The translations under genes were made by a program, and so were the position numbers. Source: Chloroflexota bacterium (GTDB taxonomy: Bacteria > Chloroflexota > Anaerolineae > JAYEMR01). From it: DNA of 43,448 bases. Positions 3,176-40,783 of the stretch are shown piece after piece. Position 1 is the stretch's first letter. Every line of letters starts with the position of its first letter. The stretch is taken from assembly GCA_034718215.1 (NCBI GenBank), contig JAYEMR010000108.1:1-43448 (forward strand), in the 5' to 3' direction. The notes under the pieces are model-generated. The model worked only from the letters and a program-made list of their open reading frames with translations, was not told where the DNA came from and did not search any database.

Positions 3176-5519
<2,344 letters not shown>

Positions 5520-9763: not shown

Positions 9764-11030
9764 TGTGTTCCGGTAACGCTAAAACTCCTCACTCTTGTGA
9801 AAGCCAAAATTCCCCATTAAAATAGGTCCCAGATGTCCATCTCCATCTCACGAAAGGGGGATCTGGGATCATGAAGATTCAAAACCTGTGGGATGTCCCC
9901 ATCGTCCGTCATCGCTTCCAAGTGGCCCTCCATGCGTTGATCCACGACAACAAATCCGCCACGGCCCGGAAGTTTAACCACGCCCGTAAGACCGTTCGAA
10001 GGTATATCGAGCGGTTCGAGGAGTATAAAAGGAGTGGTGACCTTAGCACCTTCTTAAATAAGCCCCGAGGGGACAATCATCGTACCCCTCGATGGATCGA
10101 GGACTGGGTAGTGGAGTGTTACCTGGAGGAGGACACCGAGCGAACTTGCCCCAACATCGCTCGAGAGTTGGGGAGAGTGCACGAGATTCCACTCACTCGC
10201 CAAACCATTCGCAATATTCTGATCCGTCGAGGAGTGTGGGAACCCACCCGAGAGCAGACTCCCATCATCCGCTTCGAAAAGGACAAACCTAATGCTCTCT
10301 GGCAGGTTGACCTGATTGAGCAAGCGAAGACTGATATAGGCAGGGTCTACGGCTTGGTAGTAGTGGATGACCACTCTCGCTATCTCATCACCCTGCACTT
10401 CCTGTTCACCAAAGAGGCGGAGGGGGTTCTCCATGCCCTTTATCTTGCCTTTTGCCGGTATGGCCTACCTACTAAGATTCTGTGCGACAAAGGAAGTCAG
10501 TTCTACTCCACCTTCCAGGGCAGCCTGAGTCGCTTTCAGAAAGTCATGGACCGATTAGGGGTCGAGGTGGAATTCACCAGTCGTCCCCAGACCAAGGGGA
10601 AGGTGGAGAAGTTGATCCAATTTATTGAGCGTGATTTCTTGGCCGTGTACCGCCATCGGGTGAGCCATCTCCAGCAGCTCAACGAGCACGCGGAGGGGTG
10701 GCGCCAAGGGTACAACAGGCGACCTCATGAAGGCATCCACACCTATCCCCAGCAGCGATACCAACCTTCCTCTTGCAAGGTGGGAAAGGACGCTTTGTGG
10801 GAGGCCTTTGCTCAAGAAGAGCGAAGCGAGATAGCACCATCCGATGGTGGGGTGGCAAATACTCGGTGCCCAGCGATTACATTGGTTCTCATGTCTGGGT
10901 TCAGACCTTTGGTGGGCAGATGAAGATCCGAGCTGGGGTTCGCAACAAGGTCATCGCCACCCACTCTATCCCTCCCTAGTGGGAAAGTTTAGCTTTTACA
11001 TACCTGGGCAGATTTAGCTTTTACGGAACA
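9764..11030 (+). mobile_element. insertion sequence with a single DDE (rve) transposase, imperfect terminal inverted repeats and subterminal repeats
   Basis: Left end TGTGTTCCGGTAACGCTAAAAC. Right end, reverse complement, TGTTCCGTAAAAGCTAAATC. Both ends are flanked by GGCC (9760-9763 and 11031-11034). TTTAGCTTTTAC occurs twice at the right end (10988-10999, 11013-11024), with related copies at the left end. The element looks lower in GC than its surroundings. Confidence 0.7.
9871..10979 (+). pseudogene. DDE transposase (HTH + rve integrase core), frameshifted near 10790-10815
   Basis: HTH (ARKFNHARKTVRRYIERFEE). DDE core WQVDL...VVVDDHSRY...LCDKGSQFYS...KGKVEKLIQFIERDF...YNRRPHEGI. The C-terminal beta-barrel-like segment RRAKRDSTIRWWGGKYSVPSDYIGSHVWVQTFGGQMKI is in another frame (track ORF 10773..10979). 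Confidence 0.75.
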
Positions 11031-20793: not shown

Positions 20794-20850
20794 CCCTCCC
20801 CCGAACATAAAGTGTCCGGGCTACGAAGCAGCGCCCCGTGAACGGGGCTT

Positions 20851-20888
20851 GCCTGTACCAGGTACTGGTGCCTGTACCAGGTACTGGT
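20851..20888 (+). repeat. perfect tandem duplication, 2 x 19 nt
   Basis: GCCTGTACCAGGTACTGGT at 20851-20869 and again at 20870-20888. The hairpin GCCCCG-TGAA-CGGGGC (20833-20848) precedes it. Confidence 0.9.
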
Positions 20889-20963
20889 GAAAACTTATTT
20901 TGGCATCACATCTGTATCCATCTGTGCCCGCCCGCACCTGAGCCTTTAAATCTGAGAGGCGAT

Positions 20964-23110: not shown

Positions 23111-24988
23111 TCAGATATATTCAGCTAGATCGAGGGCCGGGGCGTGGGTCCCCTTCCAGTAGCGCACCAGGGCGCGCAGCTCGCTGTCGGGGACAAAGCA
23201 GCCCTGAATGCGCACCAGCTTGGAGGAATCAGGAGGCATGTACAGCATGTCGCCTTCCCCCAGGAGCTTTTCCGCGCCCTCTGTATCCAGCACCACCCGC
23301 GAGTCCACGCGGGAGGCAGTGGCGAAGGAGATGCGAGCTGGAAAATTGGCCTTGATCAGACCAGTCACCACATCTACACTGGGCCGCTGGGTAGCGATGA
23401 CAAGATGAATACCTGTGGCGCGTGCCATCTGAGCGATGCGGCAAACCAGCCGCTCCACCTCCTGAGGGGCAGCCACCATCAGGTCGGCCAGCTCGTCAAT
23501 CACCACGATGATGTAGGGTAGGCCTCGCTCACCACGGCTGGCCACGCGCTGATTGTAGTCCATCAGATGACTAGCTCCGATGTCGGCGAAGCGCTGGTAT
23601 CGCTCATCCATCTGGTGGGTGACCCATTTGAGGGCTTCCACCACTTGCTCCACTTCTACCATCACCGGCGCCAGGAGGTGGGGAATGCCATTGTAAAGGG
23701 TCAACTCCACCATTTTGGGGTCAACCATGATGAACTTCAATTGGTCTGGGGTGTTGTTGCAGAGCAAGCAGGAGACGATGGATTTGATGCAGACCGACTT
23801 CCCCGAGCCGGTTGCGCCGGCGATCAACAGGTGAGGCATGGTGGACAGGTCAGCCACCACCGGCCAGCCCGACACCTCGCGTCCCAAGGCGATTTTAAGC
23901 GGCGACTTCAACCGCTGGAACTCTTCTGATTCCATCACCCCTCGCAGGGAGACCAGAGCCGGCTGCGAGTTGGGTACCTCAATCCCCACCAGTGACCGCC
24001 CCGGGATGGGGGTCTCAATGCGGATGGGGGAAGCGGCCAAGGCTAGGGCCAAGTCATCCGCCCGAGCGCTGATCTGGCTGACCTTGACCTTCTTACGCTC
24101 GCCACTGCGCTGAGTGATGAAGCCTGGTTCCACGCCAAACTGGGTGACAACTGGCCCCTGATTAACCTCCATCACCGTGGCCGGCAGGCCGAAATGAGTC
24201 AGCGTCTTCTCGATGGTCCGCGCTCGACGGCGGATCTCAGTCTGGCTTACCTCTGGCTCTGGCGAGTCGGTCAGGATCTCGGCGATGGGAGGAAGCTCCC
24301 AATGCTCTCCACCAATGATACGAGGACGAGGGAAAAACATGCCTGGAGGGGCGCGGCGTGGAGAAGGTGAGGGAGCTGGAGAGGGCCTCTCGGATGAAGA
24401 TGGGGTGCTTTGAACAGGGGATGAGGATGCCCTCTCGCCTTGGGCCATCCTCCACTGCCGCAACCTCCGCCCCATCCGCCCCAGAATCGCTGCGATCTCC
24501 AGTGGAGAGAGGCTGAGCAAGAGAGAGATAGCCGCCCCGATCAATGCAAATAGGAGAATATAGCCTCCCCAATAGCCAAGGCTGCTGATCAACAAGCTGG
24601 ATAGGCGCCAGCCCAGGTATCCGCCGCCTCCTCCATAACGAGCGACCGCCTCCCTCTCAGCCCCAGGGATGAGGAGATGTGTCAGGGCCAGAAGCAGACA
24701 GGCCAGCACCACCGCGCCTGCCACCCGTTCCCAAGCCACGGCAGGAGAGCGGCCCATGCCTCTGAGTAGGAGCCACAGCCCCGTCGCCCCTAGTCCTATC
24801 GGCGCCAGGTAGACCCCCCACCCAAACCCCTGTCGCAGCAGGTGCAACCAGCCGCCGGTGACCATCCCCTGCCTGAAGGATACCAAGCTCAACAGGGTGA
24901 AGAGGGCGGCGATGACGAAGATGATGCCCATCACCTGGGGGCGAAATATGAAAAGTCTCCGACCCTTCTTCCGTTTAGCCATATTCAT
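23111..24988 (-). CDS. ftsK: DNA translocase FtsK
   Basis: 625 aa. N-terminal TM helices, linker, motor domain with Walker A LLIAGATGSGKSV and Walker B IIVVIDELADLM, and a C-terminal gamma-like end. Confidence 0.95.
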   Translation of the reverse strand: MNMAKRKKGRRLFIFRPQVMGIIFVIAALFTLLSLVSFRQGMVTGGWLHLLRQGFGWGVYLAPIGLGATGLWLLLRGMGRSPAVAWERVAGAVVLACLLLALTHLLIPGAEREAVARYGGGGGYLGWRLSSLLISSLGYWGGYILLFALIGAAISLLLSLSPLEIAAILGRMGRRLRQWRMAQGERASSSPVQSTPSSSERPSPAPSPSPRRAPPGMFFPRPRIIGGEHWELPPIAEILTDSPEPEVSQTEIRRRARTIEKTLTHFGLPATVMEVNQGPVVTQFGVEPGFITQRSGERKKVKVSQISARADDLALALAASPIRIETPIPGRSLVGIEVPNSQPALVSLRGVMESEEFQRLKSPLKIALGREVSGWPVVADLSTMPHLLIAGATGSGKSVCIKSIVSCLLCNNTPDQLKFIMVDPKMVELTLYNGIPHLLAPVMVEVEQVVEALKWVTHQMDERYQRFADIGASHLMDYNQRVASRGERGLPYIIVVIDELADLMVAAPQEVERLVCRIAQMARATGIHLVIATQRPSVDVVTGLIKANFPARISFATASRVDSRVVLDTEGAEKLLGEGDMLYMPPDSSKLVRIQGCFVPDSELRALVRYWKGTHAPALDLAEYI

Positions 24989-25230
24989 CCCTGATCACCA
25001 ATACTATAACGATCACGCCTCTATTTCAAGCTCATCGCCGAGGGAGAGCCGTCCTATTTGACAACGACCAATTCGCCGACGAGGTGCGCACTGACAAGCT
25101 GGGTAACCTCATTGCCCTAAAGCGGGGAGAGGGCCAGGGGCCACATCCTCGCGTCATGCTGGCTGGGCACATGGACGAGATTGGGCTGATGATCACCGCA
25201 TTCAAGGAAGGCTTCCTGCACTTCACCACG
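24899..25230 (+). repeat. direct repeat R1 (ftsK 5' end + ftsK/M42 spacer + internal M42 fragment, with a 159-bp deletion)
   Basis: 24899-25068 aligns to 26866-27035, and 25069-25230 aligns to 27195-27356. I count 6 mismatches in 332 aligned positions. R1 lacks the 27036-27194 segment. Confidence 0.9.
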
Positions 25231-25426
25231 CTGGGGCTTCTCCCTCGCCGTCTCCGATGAGATAACCCGGATTATATAGCATCCGTGTGTCAGCAGTATG
25301 GCAGGGATGTTACAGTTCTGAAACAGTGTGTTACGGTTTTGAACGCTATTCGACCTCCAAGGCAAAGCAAACGCCCTCGAAACACTGAGGAATAGCCTAT
25401 TGGGAACGAGGATCGCCAGGCCTGGG

Positions 25427-26865: not shown

Positions 26866-27356
26866 GAAGAGGGCGGCGATGACGAAGATGATGCCCATCA
26901 CCTGGGGGCGAAATATGAAAAGTCTCCGACCCTTCTTCCGTTTAGCCATATTCATCCCTGATCACCAATACTATAATGATCACGCCTCTATGTCAAGCTC
27001 ATCGCCGAGGGAGGGCCGTCCTATTTGACAACGACGATTAATAAGCGTATAATAGCCTTCCATATTCCCTAAAGGACGAAACCAGGAGGTTACTGATTAT
27101 GGAGGTGATACCCTTTTTGCGTGCTCTGTCGGAGGCGGCAGGTGTCTCAGGATATGAGAATAGCATCCGAGAGTTGGTAATTGAGAAGTTCAGCCAGTTC
27201 GCCGACGAGGTGCGCACTGACAAGCTGGGCAACCTCATTGCCCTAAAGCGGGGAGAGGGCCAGGGGCCACATCCTCGCGTCATGCTGGCTGGGCACATGG
27301 ACGAGATCGGGCTGATGATCACCGCATTCAAGGAAGGCTTCCTGCACTTCACCACG
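26866..27356 (+). repeat. direct repeat R2 (ftsK 5' fragment + spacer + promoter and 5' part of the intact M42 gene)
   Basis: Partner of R1. Its ftsK-derived part gives the chimeric track ORF 26746..26955, whose first 30 aa are identical to the FtsK N-terminus. Confidence 0.9.
27025..27053 (+). promoter_or_regulatory. consensus sigma-70 promoter TTGACA-N17-TATAAT
   Basis: -35 TTGACA at 27025-27030 and -10 TATAAT at 27048-27053. AGGAGG follows, then the ATG at 27099. Confidence 0.7.
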
Positions 27357-28172
27357 GTGGGGGGCATCGACCCCAGGGTGCTACTGGGGCAGGAGGTGGT
27401 CGTCCACGGGCGACGCAATCTGCCGGGCATCATCAGCAGCCGCCCGCCCCATGTGCTACCTGAGGAGGAGCGAGAGAAGCCTCGTCCGACGGAGAAGCTT
27501 TTTATTGACCTCGGACTGCCTCAGGAGGAGCTTACCCAATGGGTGCAGGTGGGCGACCTGGTCACCATTCAGCGGCGCTTCACCGAGCTGAAAAATGGCT
27601 GGGCGGCGGGCAAGGCATTTGACGATCGGGCGGCGGTGACAGCCATCGCCCTCTGCCTGGCCGAGCTGGCCCGGATGCGCCACGAGTGGGATGTGTATGC
27701 GGTGGCCACAGTGCAGGAGGAGGTGGGGCTGCGGGGAGCGATCACCAGCACCTACGACATCATGCCCCAGGTGGGCATCGCCATAGATGTGGGCTTCGGC
27801 GCTGGGCCGGGTCAGCCGGAGGGAAAGACCATCGAGATGGACAAGGGGCCAGCTATCGCCTTCGGCCCCAACATCCATCCTAAGGTCCATGAGGGGCTGG
27901 TGGAAGCGGCCCAGGTGTTGGAGATCCCCCATCAGATCGAGCCCATCCCTGGCAGGAGCGGCACCGATGCCTGGGCCATGCAGATCACCCGAGAGGGGAT
28001 CCCCACCGGGCTGCTCTCCATCCCTCTGCGCTACATGCACACTTCAGTGGAGACGCTGGTGATAAAGGACATCGAGCGCACTGGAAGGCTGCTGGCTGGA
28101 TTCATAGGGCGGTTGGATGAGGCCTTTATCAAGGCGCTGAATGAGCAACTCCAAACAGAGGAGGCAGCGTGA
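27099..28172 (+). CDS. M42 family metallopeptidase (glutamyl aminopeptidase / FrvX-like)
   Basis: 357 aa. GVSGYE, MLAGHMDEIGLMIT, AFDDRAAV, VQEEVGLRGA, and the C-terminal RYMHTSVE. Confidence 0.9.
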   Translation: MEVIPFLRALSEAAGVSGYENSIRELVIEKFSQFADEVRTDKLGNLIALKRGEGQGPHPRVMLAGHMDEIGLMITAFKEGFLHFTTVGGIDPRVLLGQEVVVHGRRNLPGIISSRPPHVLPEEEREKPRPTEKLFIDLGLPQEELTQWVQVGDLVTIQRRFTELKNGWAAGKAFDDRAAVTAIALCLAELARMRHEWDVYAVATVQEEVGLRGAITSTYDIMPQVGIAIDVGFGAGPGQPEGKTIEMDKGPAIAFGPNIHPKVHEGLVEAAQVLEIPHQIEPIPGRSGTDAWAMQITREGIPTGLLSIPLRYMHTSVETLVIKDIERTGRLLAGFIGRLDEAFIKALNEQLQTEEAA

Positions 28173-34614: not shown

Positions 34615-34640
34615 TGCCCGCACCTGATCGGGCACAGGTG
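34615..34640 (-). repeat. 26-nt interleaved-palindrome element, copy 1
   Basis: Plus strand TGCCCGCACCTGATCGGGCACAGGTG. It lies in the spacer between the GH-like gene and larA. Confidence 0.85.
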
Positions 34641-34674
34641 GACAGGAATAGGGAACACACTACGTCAGTGAGAG

Positions 34675-35955
34675 TTAACTCGGGGATACTACGGGCAACG
34701 TCTCCGCCGCCCGAGGTAAGATGTGCACCTTCGCATCGGGCCCGTGGCGGCTCAAAGCCTCCTCCAGCGCCTCCTGCACTGTGGCGAAGGGCACGTACCC
34801 CAGGGCCTCTGTCTCCTGAGCTGATATCCCATCGGAGACCAGGCTGATCTGTCGGCCGGCGCGCACCCTGGCCCAGGCAATGGCCAGTGCCGCGGCGACC
34901 CCGTCCTCGATTCCTCCCTCCCGAACTTTGGCGTCTATCTCCTCCGGGCTCCAGGCGGTGAACTCCAGCATCTCCGAGTGCATAACCGAAACTCCCTCGG
35001 GGCAGGGGGACACCACTATGATAGTTCCCCCCGGCTGGACCGCCATGTCCGCCGGATAGAGGGCCTTGTGCGACTGCCAGAACTCGATCTCGGCGGGGAA
35101 GGCCCCAGAGACCGCTATATCCGCCCGCGTGTCGAAGGGGCAGGCGTGCACCTCTCGGCAGGTCTCAACGCCAGCGCGGAAGGCCTGCCTCTGGTCGCCG
35201 AACACGACGCGCACCGTCTTCCCCTCCTCATTGAGCACCACATTCAGGATGGCCGTCAGCCCCGCCTGCCCGGCAACCTCCTCCATCTCAGCCCGCACCT
35301 CGTTCTCCACCTCCCCCAGCAAAGAAGGGCGCTGACGGACGCCTAGCAGATGGGTAGCGGCCGTCGTCTCAGCGCCGGAGACCCCCGGCTGGATGATCTT
35401 GGCCCCGCCGGAGAAACCGCAGAGGTGGTGAGGCATGATGGAGCCCACCCCGATTACACAGTCCGCCTCCCACACGGTACGGTTTATGAGGATGGGCGTC
35501 CCCCGATCCGTGACACCCAGGTCCACTAGGCGGTCGATATCGTGGCAGTCGTGGTTCTCTATGGCGATGCGCTCCACGACCTCCTCGCCGTACTTAGTCC
35601 TGCACTCCGCCTCGCTCATCGGCCGGTGAGTCCCCAGGGCGATGATCAGAGTGATCTGATCATCAGCGACCCCAGCGGCATTTAGCTCCTCCAGAAGCGG
35701 GGGCAGGAGAAGGTGCGTTGGGGTTAGGCGAGTGATGTCGTCGGCGATGAGGGCCACCCGTCGGGCGCCGTGAGCCAGCTCTCTCAGAGGAGGGACGCCG
35801 ATAGGATGCTCCAAGCCCCGCCGCACCTCAGCGGCGACGTCTGAGCAGGGAGTCGTGGGCTGAGGCTCCAGCACCAGGCCCAGGTTTCGACGATCCACCT
35901 CCACCCTCAGCACTATCTCCCCGTAGGGAATCTCGATAGATATAGCTTTGGACAT
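34675..35955 (-). CDS. larA: LarA-family (nickel-pincer dependent) 2-hydroxyacid racemase/epimerase homologue
   Basis: Start at the ATG at 35955 with GGAG upstream (MSKAISIEIPYGE). DUF2088/LarA N-domain, ALGTHRPM and PHHLCGFSGGAKIIQPG motifs. No larBCE genes are in the window. Confidence 0.8.
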   Translation of the reverse strand: MSKAISIEIPYGEIVLRVEVDRRNLGLVLEPQPTTPCSDVAAEVRRGLEHPIGVPPLRELAHGARRVALIADDITRLTPTHLLLPPLLEELNAAGVADDQITLIIALGTHRPMSEAECRTKYGEEVVERIAIENHDCHDIDRLVDLGVTDRGTPILINRTVWEADCVIGVGSIMPHHLCGFSGGAKIIQPGVSGAETTAATHLLGVRQRPSLLGEVENEVRAEMEEVAGQAGLTAILNVVLNEEGKTVRVVFGDQRQAFRAGVETCREVHACPFDTRADIAVSGAFPAEIEFWQSHKALYPADMAVQPGGTIIVVSPCPEGVSVMHSEMLEFTAWSPEEIDAKVREGGIEDGVAAALAIAWARVRAGRQISLVSDGISAQETEALGYVPFATVQEALEEALSRHGPDAKVHILPRAAETLPVVSPS

Positions 35956-36040
35956 AGCGTCTCCTTTTCTCAAGTCGATTCAGGATCAGGAGTAGATTAT
36001 AGCACATCTGTGGCCAGGGCCAAGATGTAGGGAAGGAGAT

Positions 36041-36069
36041 TTGGCAATCAACGGCGAAACGGGTATAAT
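36041..36069 (+). promoter_or_regulatory. near-consensus promoter TTGGCA-N17-TATAAT
   Basis: -35 at 36041-36046 and -10 at 36064-36069. The leader of about 120 nt holds an 8-bp hairpin (CTCCTGTC 36094-36101 / GACAGGAG 36123-36130) and element copy 2. Confidence 0.6.
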
Positions 36070-36135
36070 AATCCCTCAGGTTCAGTTTGAAGGCTCCTGT
36101 CCACCTGTCCCTCGCCTGCGCAGACAGGAGCCGAT

Positions 36136-36161
36136 CACCTGTACCCGATCAGGTGCGGGCA
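36136..36161 (+). repeat. 26-nt interleaved-palindrome element, copy 2
   Basis: CACCTGTACCCGATCAGGTGCGGGCA, in the leader of the 543-aa ORF. Confidence 0.85.
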
Positions 36162-36195
36162 GGCACGGGTGCCGACAGGCAGTAAAGGAGAAGAG

Positions 36196-37827
36196 ATGAT
36201 TAAGCGCCAGACTCAGCAGTTTGATTATTGGAAGGAGTTTTCGGTCACAGAAGGTAGCCTGGAGCATCTATATGAGTTGTTCCTCGAGGGGGAGGAGCCA
36301 CACACCAGCGAGGAGCTAGCTCTGGCCCTCATCCGGAGCCGTTACCGCGAGGAGGAGGATCGCCTGCGCCAGAAATTGTCGAGCGGCGAGATCTTTCAGC
36401 CACGGAACTCATACCCTGAGGGTACGCAGCTTATTTTCCCAGCCCTAGGCTATGAGCTGGCCACCGTCGTCGGCAAGCGACCGGGCCACAGCGTGCGGTA
36501 CGGTGATTTCACAGTTATTCAGGCCCAGTTCGCTGAGGGAGGGCCGACGCGCGAGTTCGCCTCGGAGCTTGAAGCCTCCCATCCCCTCAACCTTGAGAAG
36601 GAGGGGGATATCCTGGCCAGCGGTGATCTGCTTTCACCCAAGGAGCTGTACTCCGCTCGAGGGGACGCAGTGGCCTCAACCCTGGAGGAGACGCTGGCTG
36701 AGAGCGAGGATTTCGTCCACTGGAATGATGAGTGGTACCTCCGGGAGCTCATGCCCGATCTAAATGAGGGACATCGAAACATCGTGGAGGCGGTTATTGA
36801 GGTGGAGGGCGAGCCCATGGAGGCGGAGGGGCTCCTGCCCAAGTTGGATCTCTCGGATGAGTTCAAGCCTAGGGCCCAGGTCTTTGCCCTCAATTATTCC
36901 CTGGCCCACGATGAACGCTTCGAGGATGTGGGGCCAGCGGGCCAGGTCCGCTGGTTCCTGAGGCGCATGGAGCCGGAGGAGGTCCATGAGAAACCTCCCC
37001 GCCTTCGCTGCCAGAGGGAGTCCTACGATCCTACTGTGATCCGGCCGGATATGCTGGATTGGGTGCAAGAGTTCGCTGATGAGTTGATTGAGCCAGAGCT
37101 GCAGCCGACTTGGGAACCGGAGCAGGAGGAGACGACGCTGGTGCTCACCTACCCCCACCGCAGAGCGGGCACCCTTCCCCTGACGCCTCAGACCACCCCC
37201 TTCTTCCCTCAGAAGGAGGATGGCCCAGTGCATATCTATTTCCGCCATCCGCAGAGCAAAACGCGCTGGCCGGGCTGGGTCGTGGCTCAGGAGGGCTACG
37301 TGTATGGCCTGAGGCAATGGTACGATGAGGCCTCCATCCCCGCTGGGACTTATATCACACTGAGGCGCGGGGCTGACCCTTTGGAAGTGCTGATCGAGTG
37401 TCAACAGCGGCGCCTGAGGGAGTGGGTACGGGTAGCCCAAGTTCGGGATGGGAAGCTGACCTTCGAAATGCAGTCCCGCTCCGTTTCCTGGGAATATGAT
37501 GACTTGATGCTCATATCCGAGGCCCATCCTTCACCTGTGCCTGATCAGGTGCAGGCAAAGATAGATCGTGTGTGGCAGCGGGCGGAGGAGGAGCGCAGGT
37601 CCATTTTCACCATCCTCTGCGAGATATTCCCTGAGCTGTCCAAACTCAATCCGCAGGGTACGGTACACGTCAAAACGCTCTACGCGGCGGTGAATGTGAT
37701 ACGCCGCTTCTCGCCAGGCCCCATCTTGGCCGAGCTGTCCACACGGGCATGTTTCCTTCCCGTGGGCGACGGTTATTGGAGCTACCATGAAGAACACCTG
37801 TGCCTGATCAGGTGCAGGCAAAGGTAG
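36196..37827 (+). CDS. hypothetical acidic protein, 543 aa, no family recognised
   Basis: ATG at 36196 with GGAG 5 nt upstream; the track ORF starts at a GTG at 36169. It is a long uninterrupted ORF. The N-terminal segment (SLEHLYELFLEGEEPHTSEELALALIRS) looks winged-helix-like. It carries element copies 3 and 4 in frame. Confidence 0.7.
   Translation: MIKRQTQQFDYWKEFSVTEGSLEHLYELFLEGEEPHTSEELALALIRSRYREEEDRLRQKLSSGEIFQPRNSYPEGTQLIFPALGYELATVVGKRPGHSVRYGDFTVIQAQFAEGGPTREFASELEASHPLNLEKEGDILASGDLLSPKELYSARGDAVASTLEETLAESEDFVHWNDEWYLRELMPDLNEGHRNIVEAVIEVEGEPMEAEGLLPKLDLSDEFKPRAQVFALNYSLAHDERFEDVGPAGQVRWFLRRMEPEEVHEKPPRLRCQRESYDPTVIRPDMLDWVQEFADELIEPELQPTWEPEQEETTLVLTYPHRRAGTLPLTPQTTPFFPQKEDGPVHIYFRHPQSKTRWPGWVVAQEGYVYGLRQWYDEASIPAGTYITLRRGADPLEVLIECQQRRLREWVRVAQVRDGKLTFEMQSRSVSWEYDDLMLISEAHPSPVPDQVQAKIDRVWQRAEEERRSIFTILCEIFPELSKLNPQGTVHVKTLYAAVNVIRRFSPGPILAELSTRACFLPVGDGYWSYHEEHLCLIRCRQR
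37532..37557 (+). repeat. 26-nt interleaved-palindrome element, copy 3 (intragenic)
   Basis: CACCTGTGCCTGATCAGGTGCAGGCA, translated as SPVPDQVQA within the 543-aa ORF. Confidence 0.9.
37795..37820 (+). repeat. 26-nt interleaved-palindrome element, copy 4 (supplies the ORF C-terminus)
   Basis: Identical to copy 3 but read in a different frame (HLCLIRCRQR-stop). The TAG at 37825-37827 lies just beyond it. Confidence 0.9.
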
Positions 37828-37843
37828 TATGGAGATAAATACC

Positions 37844-38299
37844 ATGCCTACATCCCTAAATGACGATCCGGAGGCTCAGATAAGCATACTGCGATCTACG
37901 GTAGAGACCAAGTTTCACATAGACACGGAGTGGTGGGAGGAGCAGGGACGCAACCTGCGCTTTCACCTATATGATCGCCTATGTCCCGATTGCAAGGAAC
38001 TCTACTCCTCCTACAATGAGGTGGAGGAGGTGGATTGGGTAGATGATGAGACCGCGGAGGTAACCCGAGTGAATGCTCTGTGGCATGCCCTAAGCACCTG
38101 TTGCAGCAACAGGCCCGATTACATCACCGAGGAAACACCTTTCATTGAGGCCATCTTTCGAGTTTTCCTATCCAATGGCAACACCCCTCTCACCCCCCTC
38201 GAACTGCATGAACGCCTCAACCCCCGTCCGCCAAAGGTCATCCTCCGACTGCTGACCGGGGATCGGATCTACAACGGCATCAGGCCTTGTCCCTCCTAA
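37844..38299 (+). CDS. hypothetical protein, about 151 aa, no family recognised
   Basis: ATG at 37844 with GGAG 9 nt upstream; the alternative ATG at 37829 is used in the track. It has a CPDC pair and a C-terminal segment (TPLTPLELHERLNPRPPKVILRLL), and is co-oriented with the 543-aa ORF. Confidence 0.6.
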   Translation: MPTSLNDDPEAQISILRSTVETKFHIDTEWWEEQGRNLRFHLYDRLCPDCKELYSSYNEVEEVDWVDDETAEVTRVNALWHALSTCCSNRPDYITEETPFIEAIFRVFLSNGNTPLTPLELHERLNPRPPKVILRLLTGDRIYNGIRPCPS

Positions 38300-38341
38300 C
38301 CTTGAGCCTGACGCTACAGCTAGCGGCTGCGGAAGGCCGTG

Positions 38342-38367
38342 CACCCGTGCCTGATCGGGTACAGGCA
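38342..38367 (+). repeat. 26-nt interleaved-palindrome element, copy 5
   Basis: CACCCGTGCCTGATCGGGTACAGGCA, 7 nt upstream of tRNA-Arg. Confidence 0.85.
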
Positions 38368-38374
38368 AACACCT

Positions 38375-38447
38375 GCCCCTGTAGCTCAGCGGACAGAGCA
38401 CCTGCCTTCTAAGCAGGGTGCCGGGGGTTCGAATCCCTCCAGGGGCA
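38375..38447 (+). tRNA. tRNA-Arg (anticodon UCU), 73 nt, CCA not encoded
   Basis: Hand-folded cloverleaf. Acceptor GCCCCTG/CAGGGGC, D stem GCTC/GAGC, anticodon stem CCTGC/GCAGG with loop CT-TCT-AA. Variable loop GTGCC, T arm GGGGG-TTCGAAT-CCCTC, discriminator A. Confidence 0.9.
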
Positions 38448-38495
38448 CTGGACTAGGAGGTCGATGCAAGTGGGATGGGCCTGAATTACCGGTGA

Positions 38496-38514
38496 CCTGT
38501 CTGCCACAGGCAGG
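38496..38514 (+). repeat. 19-nt hairpin element, left copy of a perfect inverted pair
   Basis: CCTGTCTGCCACAGGCAGG. It folds as an 8-bp stem (one G-U pair) with loop CCA. Its exact reverse complement is at 38715-38733. Confidence 0.85.
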
Positions 38515-38518
38515 AAAG

Positions 38519-38695
38519 TTATGCGGGACTGCCTATAACACTGAGCATCTCCTCAGGATTGCCCGCCATTTCTTCCATCGCCTCCTGCCTGCACCTGATC
38601 AGGCACAGGTGGTCGCTCCAGGGAATCTCCGCTGTGCCAAAACACATCGAGCGCTCGTGGCCCTTGCCGGTGACCAGCACCAGATCGCCACCTGA
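38519..38695 (-). pseudogene. diverged duplicate of the murE 3' end (last ~57 codons), carrying a 24-nt element insertion
   Basis: Reads GDLVLVTGKGHERSMCFGTAEIPWSD-HLCLIRCR-QEAMEEMAGNPEEML...stop. Authentic MurE reads GDLVLVTGKGHERSMCFGTTEYPWSD-QEAVREALREVLCR. 38612-38689 aligns to 39206-39283 with 10 differences in 78 nt by my count. Confidence 0.8.
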
Positions 38696-39095
38696 TGCGG
38701 CTTATCGGTTCATCCCTGCCTGTGGCAGACAGGAGAGTGGCGAGGAGCATCGGCAGTGGCTTCAGCTCCCGCTTCAATGGGTCGAGGACCAGTCCAAGTG
38801 CCTCCAGGGTGAACGCCCCCAGGAGTGTGTGGTCGCCCTTTTCACCAAAGATGACATCAGCCCCGCCTACCCTTTCACCATACCGGAAGAAAGCAAAGCC
38901 CTTCTTGCGGACGACCTTAGTGCCATTGGCCAGTCGGAATTCCTCTTCCGCTATTGGTTTAATACCGAGCTTCTGCAAAATAGGGATGGGGACCACCGAA
39001 TAGACGGCCCCAGAATCAATCAGAAAATCCACCTTCTCCGTCACCTCAGGATTAGCCGGGTTTCCAACTTCAATTTCCAACACCGTCAGTCCCAT
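38553..39095 (-). CDS. retropepsin-like (clan AA) aspartic protease with an anomalous C-terminal extension of about 60 aa
   Basis: ATG at 39095 with AGGAGG 5 nt upstream. MGLTVLEIEVGNP...VDFLIDSGAVYSVVP (DSGA active site)...LLGAFTLEALGLVLDPLKRELKPLPMLLA is a complete domain of about 119 aa. The ORF then reads on through the 19-nt hairpin, the murE fragment (out of frame) and element copy 6. Confidence 0.7.
   Translation of the reverse strand: MGLTVLEIEVGNPANPEVTEKVDFLIDSGAVYSVVPIPILQKLGIKPIAEEEFRLANGTKVVRKKGFAFFRYGERVGGADVIFGEKGDHTLLGAFTLEALGLVLDPLKRELKPLPMLLATLLSATGRDEPISRIRWRSGAGHRQGPRALDVFWHSGDSLERPPVPDQVQAGGDGRNGGQS
38586..38611 (-). repeat. 26-nt interleaved-palindrome element, copy 6 (inside the murE fragment)
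   Basis: Plus strand TGCCTGCACCTGATCAGGCACAGGTG. Comparison with murE shows that 38588-38611 (24 nt) is the inserted block. Confidence 0.9.
38715..38733 (-). repeat. 19-nt hairpin element, right copy of the inverted pair
   Basis: Plus strand CCTGCCTGTGGCAGACAGG, the exact reverse complement of 38496-38514. It sits directly after the conserved end of the retropepsin-like domain. Confidence 0.85.
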
Positions 39096-39160
39096 CGCTT
39101 CCTCCTTCTCTGAAAGCAACCAGGTATCTGACCCAATCATACTACATTGAGGCCACTTTG

Positions 39161-40783
39161 TCAACGGCACAGCACCTCTCTCAGCGCTTCCCTCACCGCC
39201 TCCTGGTCGCTCCAGGGATACTCCGTCGTGCCAAAACACATGGAGCGCTCGTGACCCTTGCCAGTCACCAGTACCAGGTCGCCCGGGCGGGCGCGCTCGA
39301 TGGCGAAACGGATCGCCTCCCCTCGATCCTCGATCCGCCAGTAGCTCTCCCCCTCCACTGCCCCTTCACTCTCGCAGCCAGCAGCGATCTGCTCAATGAT
39401 CTCCTCCAGCGGCTCGGTGCGGGGGTCCTCGGCGGTGAGCACGGCGAAATCAGCCAGCCGGGCGGCGATCTCCCCCATCATGGGCCGCTTCCCCACGTCG
39501 CGCAGCCCCGCGCAGCCGAAGACTACCCACACCCGCCCCTCGGCCAGCCCGCGCACGGTCCTCAGCGCCTGCTCCAGCGCGGCCGGCGTGTGGGCGAAGT
39601 CCACGATCACGGTGAAGGGCTGCCCACCTGTGGCCGACAGGCTACAATCAATGCGCTCCATGCGGCCGGAAATGCCCCCCAGCGCCCTGATGCCAGCCTG
39701 CATGGCCTCCACGGGCGCCTCCAGGGCTATCCCCACCGCGATGGCCGCCAGGCAGTTGTACACGTTGTAGCGCCCGATGAGAGGGATATGGACCGGGAAG
39801 TCTCCCACCGGGGTGTGTGCGGTGAAGGCGAGCGCCTGGGGCGAGGGGCGGATATCCGAGGCGGTGATGTCAGCGGGATGAGCCAGAGCGCCTGTACCCT
39901 TCAGGGTGCCTGTACCCTTTAGGGTATAAGAGAGGTGGCGGTTAGCGGGGATGGCGCGCAGATAATCGTAGGAGGGATCGTCGGCGTTGAGCACGGCGGT
40001 CTTGGGCAGGCCCGGCTTTTGGCGGGCGGAGGCCAGCCCTCGGAAGAGCATGGCCTTCGCCTCCCTGTATTTCTCGAATGTCCCGTGGGCATAGAGATGC
40101 TCGTGGGTGATGTTGGTCACGACCGCTATATCGAAATCGCAGGCCGTGACCCGATGCTGGGCCAGCCCCTCGGAGGTGGCCTCCAGCACGGCGTGGGTTG
40201 TGCCCGCGGCCACCATCTCCACCAGGTAGCGCTGCACGTCGGGGGCATCGGGCGTGGTGGTGTGCAGCCCGGTATCGTGAACTGTGTCACCGAGGACCGC
40301 GTTCACGGTGGAGATCATCCCCGTCCTGTAGCCTGCGGCGCGGAGGATGTGGTAGATCAGGTTGACGGTGGTGGTCTTGCCATCTGTTCCGGTCACGCCG
40401 ATCATGGCCATCTGACGGGCGGGGAAATTGTGCCAGGCGGCGCTCAGGTGAGCCAACGCCTCCCGGCCGGAGGGGACGACGATGAGGGGCACTTTTTGAT
40501 GCACTCGATGGCCCAGAGTTAAACTCTGGGCCATCGAGGCCATCGAGTGTTCCACCACGACTGCCGCCGCTCCCCGCTGGATCGCGTCGGGGATAAAATC
40601 GTGTCCATCCACCTGAACACCCTCGTAGGCCACGAATAGATTCCCCGCCCTCACCTCCCGCGAATCCTCGGTGATGCCGGTGATGAGCGCCCCCGGATCG
40701 CCGTGGAGCGTGGCCTGCGGAAGCGCGGGGAGCAGTTCTCTCAGCGGGCGACCTGTTGCCTCGTTCACTCGTCTCTCCGTCAA
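39161..40783 (-). CDS. murE: UDP-N-acetylmuramoyl-L-alanyl-D-glutamate--2,6-diaminopimelate ligase (MurE)
   Basis: 540 aa. P-loop GVTGTDGKTTT, Mur ligase middle and C-terminal domains, and an EDPR variant of the DNPR motif. The start overlaps the pcrA stop by 4 nt. Confidence 0.95.
   Translation of the reverse strand: MTERRVNEATGRPLRELLPALPQATLHGDPGALITGITEDSREVRAGNLFVAYEGVQVDGHDFIPDAIQRGAAAVVVEHSMASMAQSLTLGHRVHQKVPLIVVPSGREALAHLSAAWHNFPARQMAMIGVTGTDGKTTTVNLIYHILRAAGYRTGMISTVNAVLGDTVHDTGLHTTTPDAPDVQRYLVEMVAAGTTHAVLEATSEGLAQHRVTACDFDIAVVTNITHEHLYAHGTFEKYREAKAMLFRGLASARQKPGLPKTAVLNADDPSYDYLRAIPANRHLSYTLKGTGTLKGTGALAHPADITASDIRPSPQALAFTAHTPVGDFPVHIPLIGRYNVYNCLAAIAVGIALEAPVEAMQAGIRALGGISGRMERIDCSLSATGGQPFTVIVDFAHTPAALEQALRTVRGLAEGRVWVVFGCAGLRDVGKRPMMGEIAARLADFAVLTAEDPRTEPLEEIIEQIAAGCESEGAVEGESYWRIEDRGEAIRFAIERARPGDLVLVTGKGHERSMCFGTTEYPWSDQEAVREALREVLCR
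39890..39925 (-). repeat. 18-nt tandem duplication inside murE (LKGTGT / LKGTGA)
   Basis: Plus strand GCCTGTACCCTTCAGGGT (39890-39907) and GCCTGTACCCTTTAGGGT (39908-39925), with one mismatch. Each unit contains ACCCTTYAGGGT. Confidence 0.9.

Follow-up and report, generated by a model that had tools for sequence, protein, structure and literature searches.

A 24-nt repeat at CA dinucleotides in uncultured Anaerolineae: a probable non-autonomous mobile mini-element

Within 4 kb of a 43,448-nt contig from a Chloroflexota bacterium (JAYEMR010000108.1; the whole of this stretch is referred to as the window) the repeat CACCYGTRCCYGATCRGGTRCRGGCA occurs six times (n=6), where chance would give none. 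The question raised by this locus is whether these copies are sites that serve the neighbouring genes, or insertions of something that moves. As set out below, they are very probably copies of a non-autonomous mobile mini-element.

Six copies within 4 kb

A search of the window with a degenerate 26-mer recovered the six copies that had been reported in the initial annotation, each at the position and on the strand given there (Table 1) and all with 0 mismatches, and 0 of 100 shuffled sequences contained a match. The identical six copies and no others were obtained in the window when only the core was specified and the flanks and spacer dinucleotides were left free. The clustering is real, as the other 39 kb of the window have 0 copies and the loci of relatives that were retrieved via orf543, not via the repeat, have 3 copies in ~52 kb. 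No switch of the GC skew occurs near the cluster. The layout of the element is CA-[CCYG TR CCYG AT CRGG TR CRGG]-CA. The six copies are drawn from three subfamilies and carry the paired changes as first described (11C/22G in copies 1 and 2, 5C/16G in copy 5). The subfamily sequence of copy 1 is present in identical form at unrelated sites in the related loci L107, L108 and L116, and the variant of copy 5 is also found at an unrelated site in L103. In relatives that share the orf543-orf15x-tRNA synteny, the position of copy 5 is empty, and genomes of the L004 type are without copies.

Other parts of the first description had to be modified. The placement of the copies at gene boundaries stood for 5 of the 6, with the qualification that copy 4 rewrites the last codons of orf543 and copy 6 lies inside a murE 3' fragment. 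The rest of the window was said to contain only half-sites, but shortened look-alikes in tandem are present at two places (Table 1). The two 19-nt units among these share the 5' CACC and the 3' GGTACAGGCA with the element and are tentatively regarded as a possible shortened relative, found only there. The AAGRTAG that was noted after copies 3 and 4 is located outside the element; at copy 4 the AGGTAG is ancestral and is present in the homologues.

Table 1. Positions of the repeat copies and associated features in the window
Feature	Position	Strand	Description
Insertion sequence (IS)	9766..11030		rve-family integrase
Two tandem 19-nt units	20850..20889	-	CA-CCAGTACCTGGTACAGG-CA-CCAGTACCTGGTACAGG-CA; CA common to both units
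Copy 1	34615..34640	-	subfamily 2 (11C/22G); between larA stop and ribosome-binding site of 344-aa gene
Promoter-like site	36041..36069		upstream of copy 2
Copy 2	36136..36161	+	subfamily 2 with 8A; 5' leader of orf543
Older-copy 5' half (CACCCGTGCCTG)	36160..36171	-	remnant disrupted by copy 2
Copy 3	37532..37557	+	consensus; in frame within orf543; +8 residues (S-PVPDQVQA-K)
Copy 4	37795..37820	+	consensus; orf543 last codons; ...YDERRR* to ...YHEEHLCLIRCRQR*, net +24 nt
Copy 5	38342..38367	+	subfamily 3 (5C/16G/20A); 8 nt upstream of tRNA-Arg(TCT)
Displaced murE 3' fragment	38520..38689	-	without copy 6 encodes ...PWSDQEAMEEMAGNPEEMLSVIGSPA*; hosts copy 6
Copy 6	38586..38611	-	consensus; in frame in displaced duplicate of murE 3' end
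Empty site in functional murE 3' end	39204..39205	-	single CA (GAGCGAC-CA-GGAGGCG); paralogous to copy 6 site
Tandem look-alikes	39893..39928		short

From related metagenome contigs 33 insertion sites were collected, with 15 distinct sequences, and 15 unrelated sites in assemblies from JGI, ENA and Logan carry the identical consensus. The strict 26-mer gave 0 matches in the GTDB representative genomes. A looser 21-mer gave at least 89 single matches there, mostly in Streptomyces and other GC-rich genomes; these were treated as chance matches and not as members of the family, no multi-copy loci being among the matches listed. Viral contigs had 0 repeat matches. No family member was present at <=6 mismatches in 61 other Chloroflexota loci (946 kb) that were retrieved via PcrA, and a pattern search of GTDB genomes revealed no close relative of orf543. 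The impression that the repeat belongs to no described family was borne out: a tRNA was the sole Rfam match in the window, with none at the repeats, the sequence was absent from the literature searched and a GTAG or CGTC tag is lacking. The best explanation is that the element is hosted by a narrow lineage of uncultured Anaerolineae (Chloroflexota).

Empty and filled sites

Empty and filled sites were compared in four cases (n=4): the two sites of orf543, the murE 3' end with its duplicate and, on a related metagenome contig, the gene of a glycosyltransferase. The net gain reported is 24 nt for each comparison. Precise empty sites contain one CA and filled sites CA-[22-nt core]-CA. The orf543 product has an internal insert of 8 residues and a C-terminus that is 8 residues longer, both of which are absent in 17 of 17 homologues (44-77% identity). 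In the DNA alignment of orf543, copy 3 corresponds to a clean 24-nt gap and the relative L005 has TCA at this site, as a CA target would allow; copy 4 is ambiguous in the alignment (a 14-nt gap and a diverged flank), its +24 nt being given by the codon count. When 24 nt are excised from the murE duplicate, unbroken homology with the functional murE end is obtained. The GT39 glycosyltransferase in L108 contains a 16-residue (48-nt) insert that is absent in 8 homologues (74-87% identity), the empty site reading AA-TG-AACTG and the filled site AA-TG[...]TG-AACTG. Because empty-versus-filled comparisons show a net gain, the repeats are insertions and not operators.

The element has also been inserted into itself. 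Three nested self-insertions were found (L107, L108 and window copy 2), 3 of 3 at TG 11-12 of the outer copy and inverted. Copy 2 has split an older, now decayed copy at its TG (positions 11-12), in the opposite orientation, and the excision of copy 2 in silico restores CACCCGTGCCTGATCGG.... A promoter-like site is located upstream of copy 2, which occupies the leader of orf543, and the k=31 Logan contig L001 terminates within this copy. Genes, intergenic DNA and its own copies are all targets of the element, with an insertion of exactly 24 nt at a CA dinucleotide.

Many copies are in frame within genes, where they read xPVPDQVQA or xPAPDQAQV, and those deep in long ORFs are all in the PVPDQVQA or PAPDQAQV frames. 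The unrelated genes that carry in-frame copies include DnaA (in a linker), GlyQS, PurF and a 2532-codon ORF; PDB alignments of the L110 and L109 ORFs were too distant for the insert to be delimited. Since 24 is a multiple of 3 and 4 of the 6 reading frames of the element are free of stops, insertions into coding sequence persist as linker-like inserts of 8 residues, rich in proline and glutamine.

Pairing, orientation and mode of insertion

The initial annotation had described the unit as two interleaved inverted repeats. The double substitutions of the subfamilies preserve the complementarity of tetramer 1 with tetramer 3 and of tetramer 2 with tetramer 4. For the 33 sites the covariation of the interleaved structure was 0.129 against 0.088±0.012 for shuffled alignments, a score reached in 0 of 500 shuffles, with 5 cells in which both sides were changed; behind it stand about two independent double substitutions, which were subsequently propagated within the subfamilies. 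The plain hairpin had no both-side changes and scored under every shuffle. The covariation of 5/16 and 11/22 upholds the interleaved architecture for the CCYG/CRGG tetramers, where it defines the subfamilies, but not for the outer bases of the arms. Part of the 6-bp arms is of a different nature: positions 1-2 and 25-26 are the CA of the target or its duplicate. In 8 of the 15 distinct sequences pair 1-20 is broken, and the G>A changes at positions 8 and 20, which lose the proposed CA:TG contacts, turn G·T pairs of the plain hairpin into A·T and improve it. No support was obtained for the outer CA:TG 'pairs'.

That the unit is not a plain hairpin was an overstatement. Positions 3-12 can pair with 15-24 in a 10-bp stem of 8 Watson-Crick and 2 G·T pairs, which for the top-strand RNA has the minimum energy (-13.4 kcal/mol) and is more stable by a clear margin, whereas as single-stranded DNA subfamily 2 favours the 7-12:21-26 hairpin (-6.6 vs -3.0 kcal/mol). 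An H-type pseudoknot that joins both interleaved helices was rejected on steric grounds, as it would need linkers of zero length.

Of 13 copies that were found with unconstrained flanks, 12 had CA...CA, 1 had CC...CA and 0 had TG...TG. The CA at the flanks thus goes with one orientation of the asymmetric core, which argues for strand-specific, site-specific insertion, like that of HUH/REP-type or SDR-type elements. In the mechanism that we propose, the unit would move as 24 nt of single-stranded DNA. An enzyme acting in trans would cut 3' of the CA at both ends and join the unit 3' of a target CA, which would correspond to the logic of HUH Y1 enzymes (IS200/IS605 TnpA, REP-associated RAYT). 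The two mutually exclusive hairpins of 4-6 bp (3-6:15-18 and 9-12:21-24) might overlap as the structures by which the left end and the right end are recognized. The account as a whole, a mobile mini-element together with its mechanism, is considered probable; an HUH-like single-strand mechanism taken by itself is a tentative proposal. It seems unlikely, if conceivable, that the 24-nt unit is a complete strand-specific transposition substrate, with the overlapping hairpins as its ends, CA as cleavage and target site and an enzyme in trans that is possibly of the HUH type. We know of no experimental precedent for a single-stranded circle or unit of 24 nt. A Pfam scan of the window ORFs revealed no HUH/Y1, RAYT or other candidate transposase, and regular expressions for the HUH motif, a weak test, had no match in ~340 kb of related loci. 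With three subfamilies among its six copies, the 4-kb cluster would represent a local insertion hot spot and not a function at gene boundaries.

A DDE transposase that makes a 2-bp target duplication yields the identical CA...CA product at any single site. The element could in that case be a minimal MITE, in which the core consists of two 11-nt imperfect terminal inverted repeats (CCTGTGCCTGA / CCTGCACCTGA) and the CA is a true 2-bp target-site duplication. Such a MITE would give CA-core-CA when filled and a single CA when empty, the core termini are inverted repeats that match at 9 of 11 positions, and the window holds an IS with an rve-family integrase. However, equivalent ends and a non-palindromic target predict both orientations, against 12 of 13 CA...CA and 0 TG...TG, and covariation is seen for the offset pairs but not for the equivalent repeat positions (5/22, 11/16). 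The IS of the window was rejected as the parent element, since its 54-nt terminal repeats are unrelated, and 22 bp is far under the size of the MITEs that we know to have been described. A MITE is for these reasons quite improbable.

Copying without a transposase, either by template switching in replication or through an RNA intermediate as proposed for the cyanobacterial small dispersed repeats, is also improbable, and slightly more so. In template switching a nascent 3' CA would anneal to an existing copy, copying of 24 nt would proceed as far as the next CA, after which synthesis would return to the original template. The 2-nt microhomology would predict CA plus 24 nt ending in CA, orientation-specific and with no further need of a target, and the negative transposase search (window ORFs and ~340 kb of related loci) agrees with such a route. 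Yet 2 nt of homology alone cannot give identical boundaries at 33 sites, nor can it explain the consistent choice of TG 11-12 in nesting. The RNA route has in its favour the stable top-strand RNA hairpin (-13.4 kcal/mol) and against it that no reverse transcriptase was seen in the window.

Functional sites under selection, whether bound by two offset dimers as an operator or recombination site or acting as RNA hairpins in termination or mRNA stability, are very improbable. In their favour, 5 of the 6 window copies are at gene boundaries, copy 2 lies in the orf543 leader downstream of the promoter-like site and co-option of this kind is known for REPs (PMC3733652). But copies occur within unrelated housekeeping coding sequences and within one another, orthologous loci in relatives are without copies, no copy is followed by a T-run or appeared terminator-like in a terminator scan, and there is no Rfam match. 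The copies are neither confined to promoters and leaders nor conserved at orthologous loci, as the sites of a regulon would be, and individual copies may have been secondarily co-opted. Of the three explanations that had initially been left open, the REP-like element mobilized in trans and the in-frame palindrome of the Rickettsia kind agree with the empty and filled sites, the nesting and the in-frame copies. An operator or recombination site does not fit, because copies are inside the coding sequences of DnaA, GlyQS, PurF, a glycosyltransferase and orf543.

To our knowledge, it is unsettled how repeats of REP or SDR size move, and most families are without nucleotide-exact boundaries or clean empty sites. 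The mobile mini-element proposed here offers a test case, with exact boundaries, a fixed gain of 24 nt, a 2-nt target, orientation specificity, self-nesting at one position and compensatory subfamilies, which would allow concrete models of the mechanism to be tested on short oligonucleotides. It is also an example of mobile DNA that is 'frame-neutral by design', with a linker-like octapeptide in DnaA, GlyQS, PurF and MurE. This is relevant to protein evolution and to the annotation and assembly of metagenome-assembled genomes; the bearing on assembly follows from the contig that stops within copy 2. If the 24-nt unit were indeed a complete strand-specific substrate, it would be among the smallest defined transposable units and a natural source from which essential genes of this uncultured Chloroflexota lineage acquire insertions of 8 residues in frame.

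Comparison with known systems

MITEs share terminal inverted repeats with a parent IS, have a target-site duplication and measure ~50-500 bp. The Anaerolineae element has a core of 22 nt and a flank that is coupled to orientation, and the terminal repeats of the window IS are unrelated to it. IS200/IS605 elements measure 0.7 kb or more; their left and right hairpins are separate, and their target has four or five nucleotides. They (IS608, ISDra2) resemble the Anaerolineae element in orientation-specific insertion beside a short sequence without real duplication and in the recognition of hairpins, and their cleavage sites are read by pairing with internal guide bases (PMC3479197). The 24-nt unit, in contrast, would require overlapping hairpins and a 2-nt site, and no TnpA is in evidence. 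The single CA at empty sites and the 12 of 13 CA...CA are compatible with an IS200/IS605-like insertion, which per site is indistinguishable from a 2-bp duplication.

Rickettsia palindromic elements (RPEs) and other in-frame MITE insertions, such as those in Coxiella, are likewise selfish palindromes that are tolerated in frame in functional and even essential genes, to which they add a peptide segment (PMC3733652; PMC5896051). The in-frame behaviour of RPEs is found in the Anaerolineae element, but their size and sequence class are not: RPEs are ~100-150 bp and add 30-50 residues, as against 8 residues and a nucleotide-exact boundary and target.

REPs, among them the GTAG- and CGTC-tagged superfamilies, are palindromic units of 20-40 nt whose subfamilies differ in complementary residues of the stem, with G·T pairs (PMC3733652, PMC3479197). 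They resemble the Anaerolineae element, in which a 10-bp stem with 2 G·T pairs can form although its double substitutions follow the interleaved pairing, and both have some intragenic copies, clusters and inverted pairs. [quoted passage not shown] The latter differs in that no RAYT, whose gene is flanked by the repeats in a REPtron, was found in the window ORFs or in ~340 kb of related loci (by a weak motif scan), that its covariation does not track a plain hairpin, and that it has exact boundaries and a fixed added length and is often intragenic, whereas REPs are mainly extragenic. Moreover, the 26-mer consensus and all 15 variants are without a GTAG or CGTC tag. The GTAG 4-7 nt after copy 4 was rejected as such a tag, being ancestral sequence of the orf543 stop region.

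Elhai et al. (2008, in Genome Res 18:1484) reportedly described small dispersed repeats, SDR1-8, of 21-27 nt in Nostocaceae cyanobacteria, which were recently mobile. These are said to show self-nested insertions and a secondary structure with compensatory changes. We know of no transposase associated with SDRs. At 24 nt net, or 26 nt with both CA, and with recent insertion, the Anaerolineae element falls into this class of dispersed repeats. According to PMC4390886, SDR5 inserts between nucleotides 3 and 4 of HIP1; other details of SDRs come partly from citing papers (PMC5861425, PMC4390886). The likeness extends to size class, recent mobility, precise insertion at a short site, self-nesting, a structure with compensatory changes and the absence of an associated transposase. 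The differences are the host (Chloroflexota/Anaerolineae as against cyanobacteria), the target (CA as against HIP1), the gain of exactly 24 nt, often in frame in coding sequence, and a complementarity that is interleaved and not nested. The Anaerolineae element would at best be an analogue of the SDRs, with which it is compared by description and not by sequence. Tiny mobile elements are known from other bacteria; the pairing pattern of this one is unusual.

Comparison of filled and empty sites

The DNA of the window is chromosomal, from an uncultured Anaerolineae bacterium, and has housekeeping genes all along it (ATP synthase, SecDF, Rho, FtsK, RecJ, MurE and PcrA, the latter 82% identical to that of the nearest GTDB species genome). 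The product of orf543 is a conserved hypothetical protein that lacks a Pfam domain and has >600 Chloroflexota homologues. It was aligned with 17 homologues (44-77% identity). An 8-residue internal insert was found in the window protein alone (...AHP-SPVPDQVQ-AKIDRVW vs ...DHP--------AELDRVW), which appeared as a clean 24-nt gap in the DNA alignment. Its C-terminus was 8 residues longer (...YHEEHLCLIRCRQR vs ...YDERRR in the homologues); here the DNA alignment was ambiguous (a 14-nt gap beside a diverged flank) and the additional 24 nt follow from the codon count (15 vs 7). The order of orf543, its ~150-residue neighbour and tRNA-Arg(TCT) is retained in relatives.

The segment in which copy 6 lies is a duplicate of the murE 3' end (see table). 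After removal of 24 nt the homology was uninterrupted, and the fragment then read as a full alternative C-terminus for MurE (...PWSDQEAMEEM...*). The paralogous sites are GAGCGAC-CA-GGAGGCG (empty) and GAGCGAC-CA[CCTG...CAGG]CA-GGAGGCG (filled). In a GT39 glycosyltransferase on a related contig (L108), a 16-residue insert was missing from eight homologues (74-87% identity) and corresponded to a 48-nt gap (empty AA-TG-AACTG, filled AA-TG[...]TG-AACTG). The orf543, murE and GT39 comparisons therefore yield one rule: at a CA, the sequence grows by 24 nt net, made up of the 22-nt core and one additional CA. As judged from these alignments, the 26-mer copies are insertions.

The two murE ends are ~594 bp apart, with a gene for a retropepsin-like aspartyl protease (PF13650) between them, and their homology extends beyond the 88% segment. 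The downstream end is at present broken by copy 6. It looks as if a segment carrying a substitute end had been inserted into the 3' end of murE.

Features of the window
Feature	Position	Strand	Remarks
26-mer copy 1	34615	-	11C/22G
26-mer copy 2	36136	+	11C/22G
26-mer copy 3	37532	+	
26-mer copy 4	37795	+	
26-mer copy 5	38342	+	5C/16G
26-mer copy 6	38586	-	
Doubled murE 3' end	38520-39283		80-nt segment 38610-38689 duplicates 39204-39283, 88% identity
Palindrome CCTGTCTGCCACAGGCAGG	38496-38514	+	inverted pair flanking the displaced murE fragment
Palindrome CCTGTCTGCCACAGGCAGG	38715-38733	-	second member of the pair
19-nt units	20850-20889	-	two in tandem, CA-CCAGTACCTGGTACAGG-CA-...; 5' CACC and 3' GGTACAGGCA in common with the 26-mer family
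18-nt tandem in murE	39893-39928	-	CCCTAAAGGGTACAGGCA / CCCTGAAGGGTACAGGCG; LKGTGT encoded twice; ends in family tail GGTACAGGCA
orf543 and ~150-residue neighbour	36196-38299		pair widespread in Chloroflexota (also L002, L004, L005), without Pfam domain, tRNA-Arg(TCT) usually next
Insertion sequence (IS)	9766-11030		rve-family integrase (ORF 9871-10923); 54-nt imperfect terminal inverted repeats unlike the 26-mer
170-nt repeats beside ftsK start	26866-27035, 27194-27362		98% identical to 24899-25236, which covers sequence upstream of the first M42 peptidase gene and the 5' part of that gene

Distribution of the copies

All six 26-mers of the initial annotation were recovered at their positions and on their strands with a degenerate 26-mer pattern for which no match is expected by chance, and the paired substitutions it listed were confirmed. 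A core-only pattern, CCYGNNCCYGATCRGGNNCRGG, constrained only at its four tetramers and at the AT in the middle, gave the same six matches and none further in 43 kb. In loci of relatives obtained independently of the repeat (L002, L004, L005) there are 3 copies in 52 kb; at this density of ~1 per 17 kb about 0.23 copies are expected per 4 kb, which for six copies gives a Poisson P of ~10^-7 by our own estimate. As the six fall in three subfamilies, the cluster did not arise by local duplication. The 4-kb stretch also contains the displaced murE end, a small inserted gene and further small palindromes, and we read it as a local hot spot.

Other small repeats occur in the window. The CCTGTCTGCCACAGGCAGG palindrome, absent from the other loci, has overlapping complementarity as well (CCTGT:ACAGG, CTGCC:GGCAG). 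In the 19-nt units T5>A is matched through pairing to T11 in the interleaved style; they may represent a shorter offshoot of the family, one unit having inserted beside the other at a shared CA. The region of the 18-nt tandem was too divergent from PDB MurE sequences to prove insertion. The 170-nt repeats are a recent partial duplication.

The strict pattern had no match in GTDB representative genomes or viral contigs and matched 20 contig stretches in three JGI metagenomes; further copies were present on loci obtained via orf543 homologues. Rescanning all related loci with <=7 mismatches gave 33 distinct insertion sites with 15 distinct sequences, the exact consensus occurring at 15 unrelated sites. 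In 61 other Chloroflexota genomes, ~946 kb of sequence contained no family copy, which assigns the family to a narrow lineage. Its independent presence in assemblies from JGI, ENA and Logan shows that it is not an artefact. One Logan contig (k=31) terminates within copy 2. Three near-identical contigs (L005, L006, L007) share an orthologous site at ~position 3710 where the copy differs at positions 16 and 20 only (A/G vs G/A). The same two changes define the right half of subfamily 3, which suggests gene conversion between copies.

As read directly from the sequence, the 26-mer has TGA in frame 2 of each strand and is open in the remaining four frames. Copies deep within long ORFs all encode xPVPDQVQA or xPAPDQAQV (in a 2532-codon multidomain ORF, GlyQS, the DnaA linker, the PurF end, the GT39 enzyme, orf543, an alcohol-dehydrogenase-like and a sialidase-like protein), and the HLCLIRCR frame is found chiefly at ORF ends or in dead DNA. 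This usage looks like a survivorship filter and not a function.

Pairing and folding of the unit

The initial annotation held that the unit is not a plain hairpin. Such a hairpin does exist (3-12:15-24, 8 Watson-Crick and 2 G·T pairs), but the double changes follow the interleaved pairing. Among the 15 distinct sequences the interleaved structure (1-6:15-20, 7-12:21-26) had 90.6% of cells paired, both-side changes in five cells (equalled in 1/500 shuffles) and a covariation score of 0.129 vs 0.088±0.012 in shuffles (reached in 0/500). The plain hairpin had 92.7% of cells paired, no both-side changes and a score under every shuffle. This covariation was not built in by the search, because the pattern left positions 5, 8, 11, 16, 20 and 22 free (Y/R). 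It goes back to about two founding events, later multiplied by copying (subfamily 2, 11C/22G, six sites; subfamily 3, 5C/16G/20A, three sites), with as exceptions one copy with 11C alone and one with 16G/20A without 5C. Of the proposed 6-bp arms, the pairing of tetramers 1 with 3 and 2 with 4 is thus upheld, whereas the outer CA:TG contacts are unsupported by variation. Pair 1-20 is broken in 8/15 sequences because 20G>A is common, a change that converts T·G to T·A in the plain hairpin.

Both interleaved helices at once are ruled out, as the linkers would have zero length; they would be alternative hairpins. As RNA, the top strand has the plain hairpin as minimum-energy fold (-13.4 kcal/mol, vs -8.3 and -8.5 for the interleaved hairpins). 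For single-stranded DNA the energies are close (plain -6.0 vs -5.4 and -4.4), and in the 11C/22G variant the 7-12:21-26 hairpin is favoured (-6.6 vs -3.0).

Target, mode of insertion and known relatives

In-silico excision of 24 nt from the L107 and L108 copies regained an intact outer family member, and from window copy 2 the 5' half of one. In 3/3 cases the inner copy had entered its outer copy at TG 11-12 and in inverted orientation. Flank preferences were weak (T at -1 in 14/30, G at -3 in 16/30, G at +4 in 18/30), except for a sharp rule at the base directly after the 3' CA, which was C in 0/30 flanks, C being ~30% of these genomes. The core is asymmetric, since spacers 7-8 and 19-20 are both TR. 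Because the strict pattern imposed CA at both ends, orientation was assessed only in copies found without flank constraint (n=13, the six of the window and seven from the mismatch-tolerant rescan). Their flanks were CA...CA in 12, CC...CA in one and TG...TG in none. A symmetric cut and paste with 2-bp duplication predicts both orientations; insertion therefore appears to be strand-specific or, equivalently, one CA appears to be part of the unit and the other the required target.

Insertion is thus specific for site (CA) and orientation and fixed in length, and the unit can form two alternative small hairpins. By analogy we infer that the unit would be moved by a single-strand, HUH-like cut and paste. 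RAYT cleaves at CT dinucleotides flanking the REP hairpin, the site being read via guide-base pairing, and IS200/IS605 elements insert, without creating a duplication, beside a fixed short sequence (PMC3479197). No HUH-like enzyme was found in the window, nor in ~340 kb of related loci by a weak, motif-based scan. Rival explanations are a DDE-type mini-MITE with 2-bp duplication, against which the lack of TG...TG among the 13 copies speaks, template switching guided by 2-nt microhomology, and an RNA route. The only IS of the window was rejected as parent, its terminal repeats being unrelated to the 26-mer.

Neither Rfam nor a literature search with the 26-mer sequence gave a match, in agreement with the earlier statement that the architecture was not recognised as a described repeat family. 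The 26-mer family resembles the cyanobacterial small dispersed repeats (SDR) that Elhai is said to have described in 2008, which reportedly share its size range (21-27 nt), precise insertion, self-nesting and compensatory changes. SDR5 inserts precisely into HIP1 (PMC4390886). REPs, some copies of which are intragenic, have subfamilies with complementary stems (PMC3733652), and the 26-mer family behaves like them, although it lacks the tag that defines the GTAG/CGTC REP superfamilies. It is like the Rickettsia elements in that its in-frame presence is tolerated, and much smaller than MITEs and RPEs. The 26-mer is a genuine feature. It is an insertion element whose general kind is known, found here in a new phylum and with an unusual anatomy.
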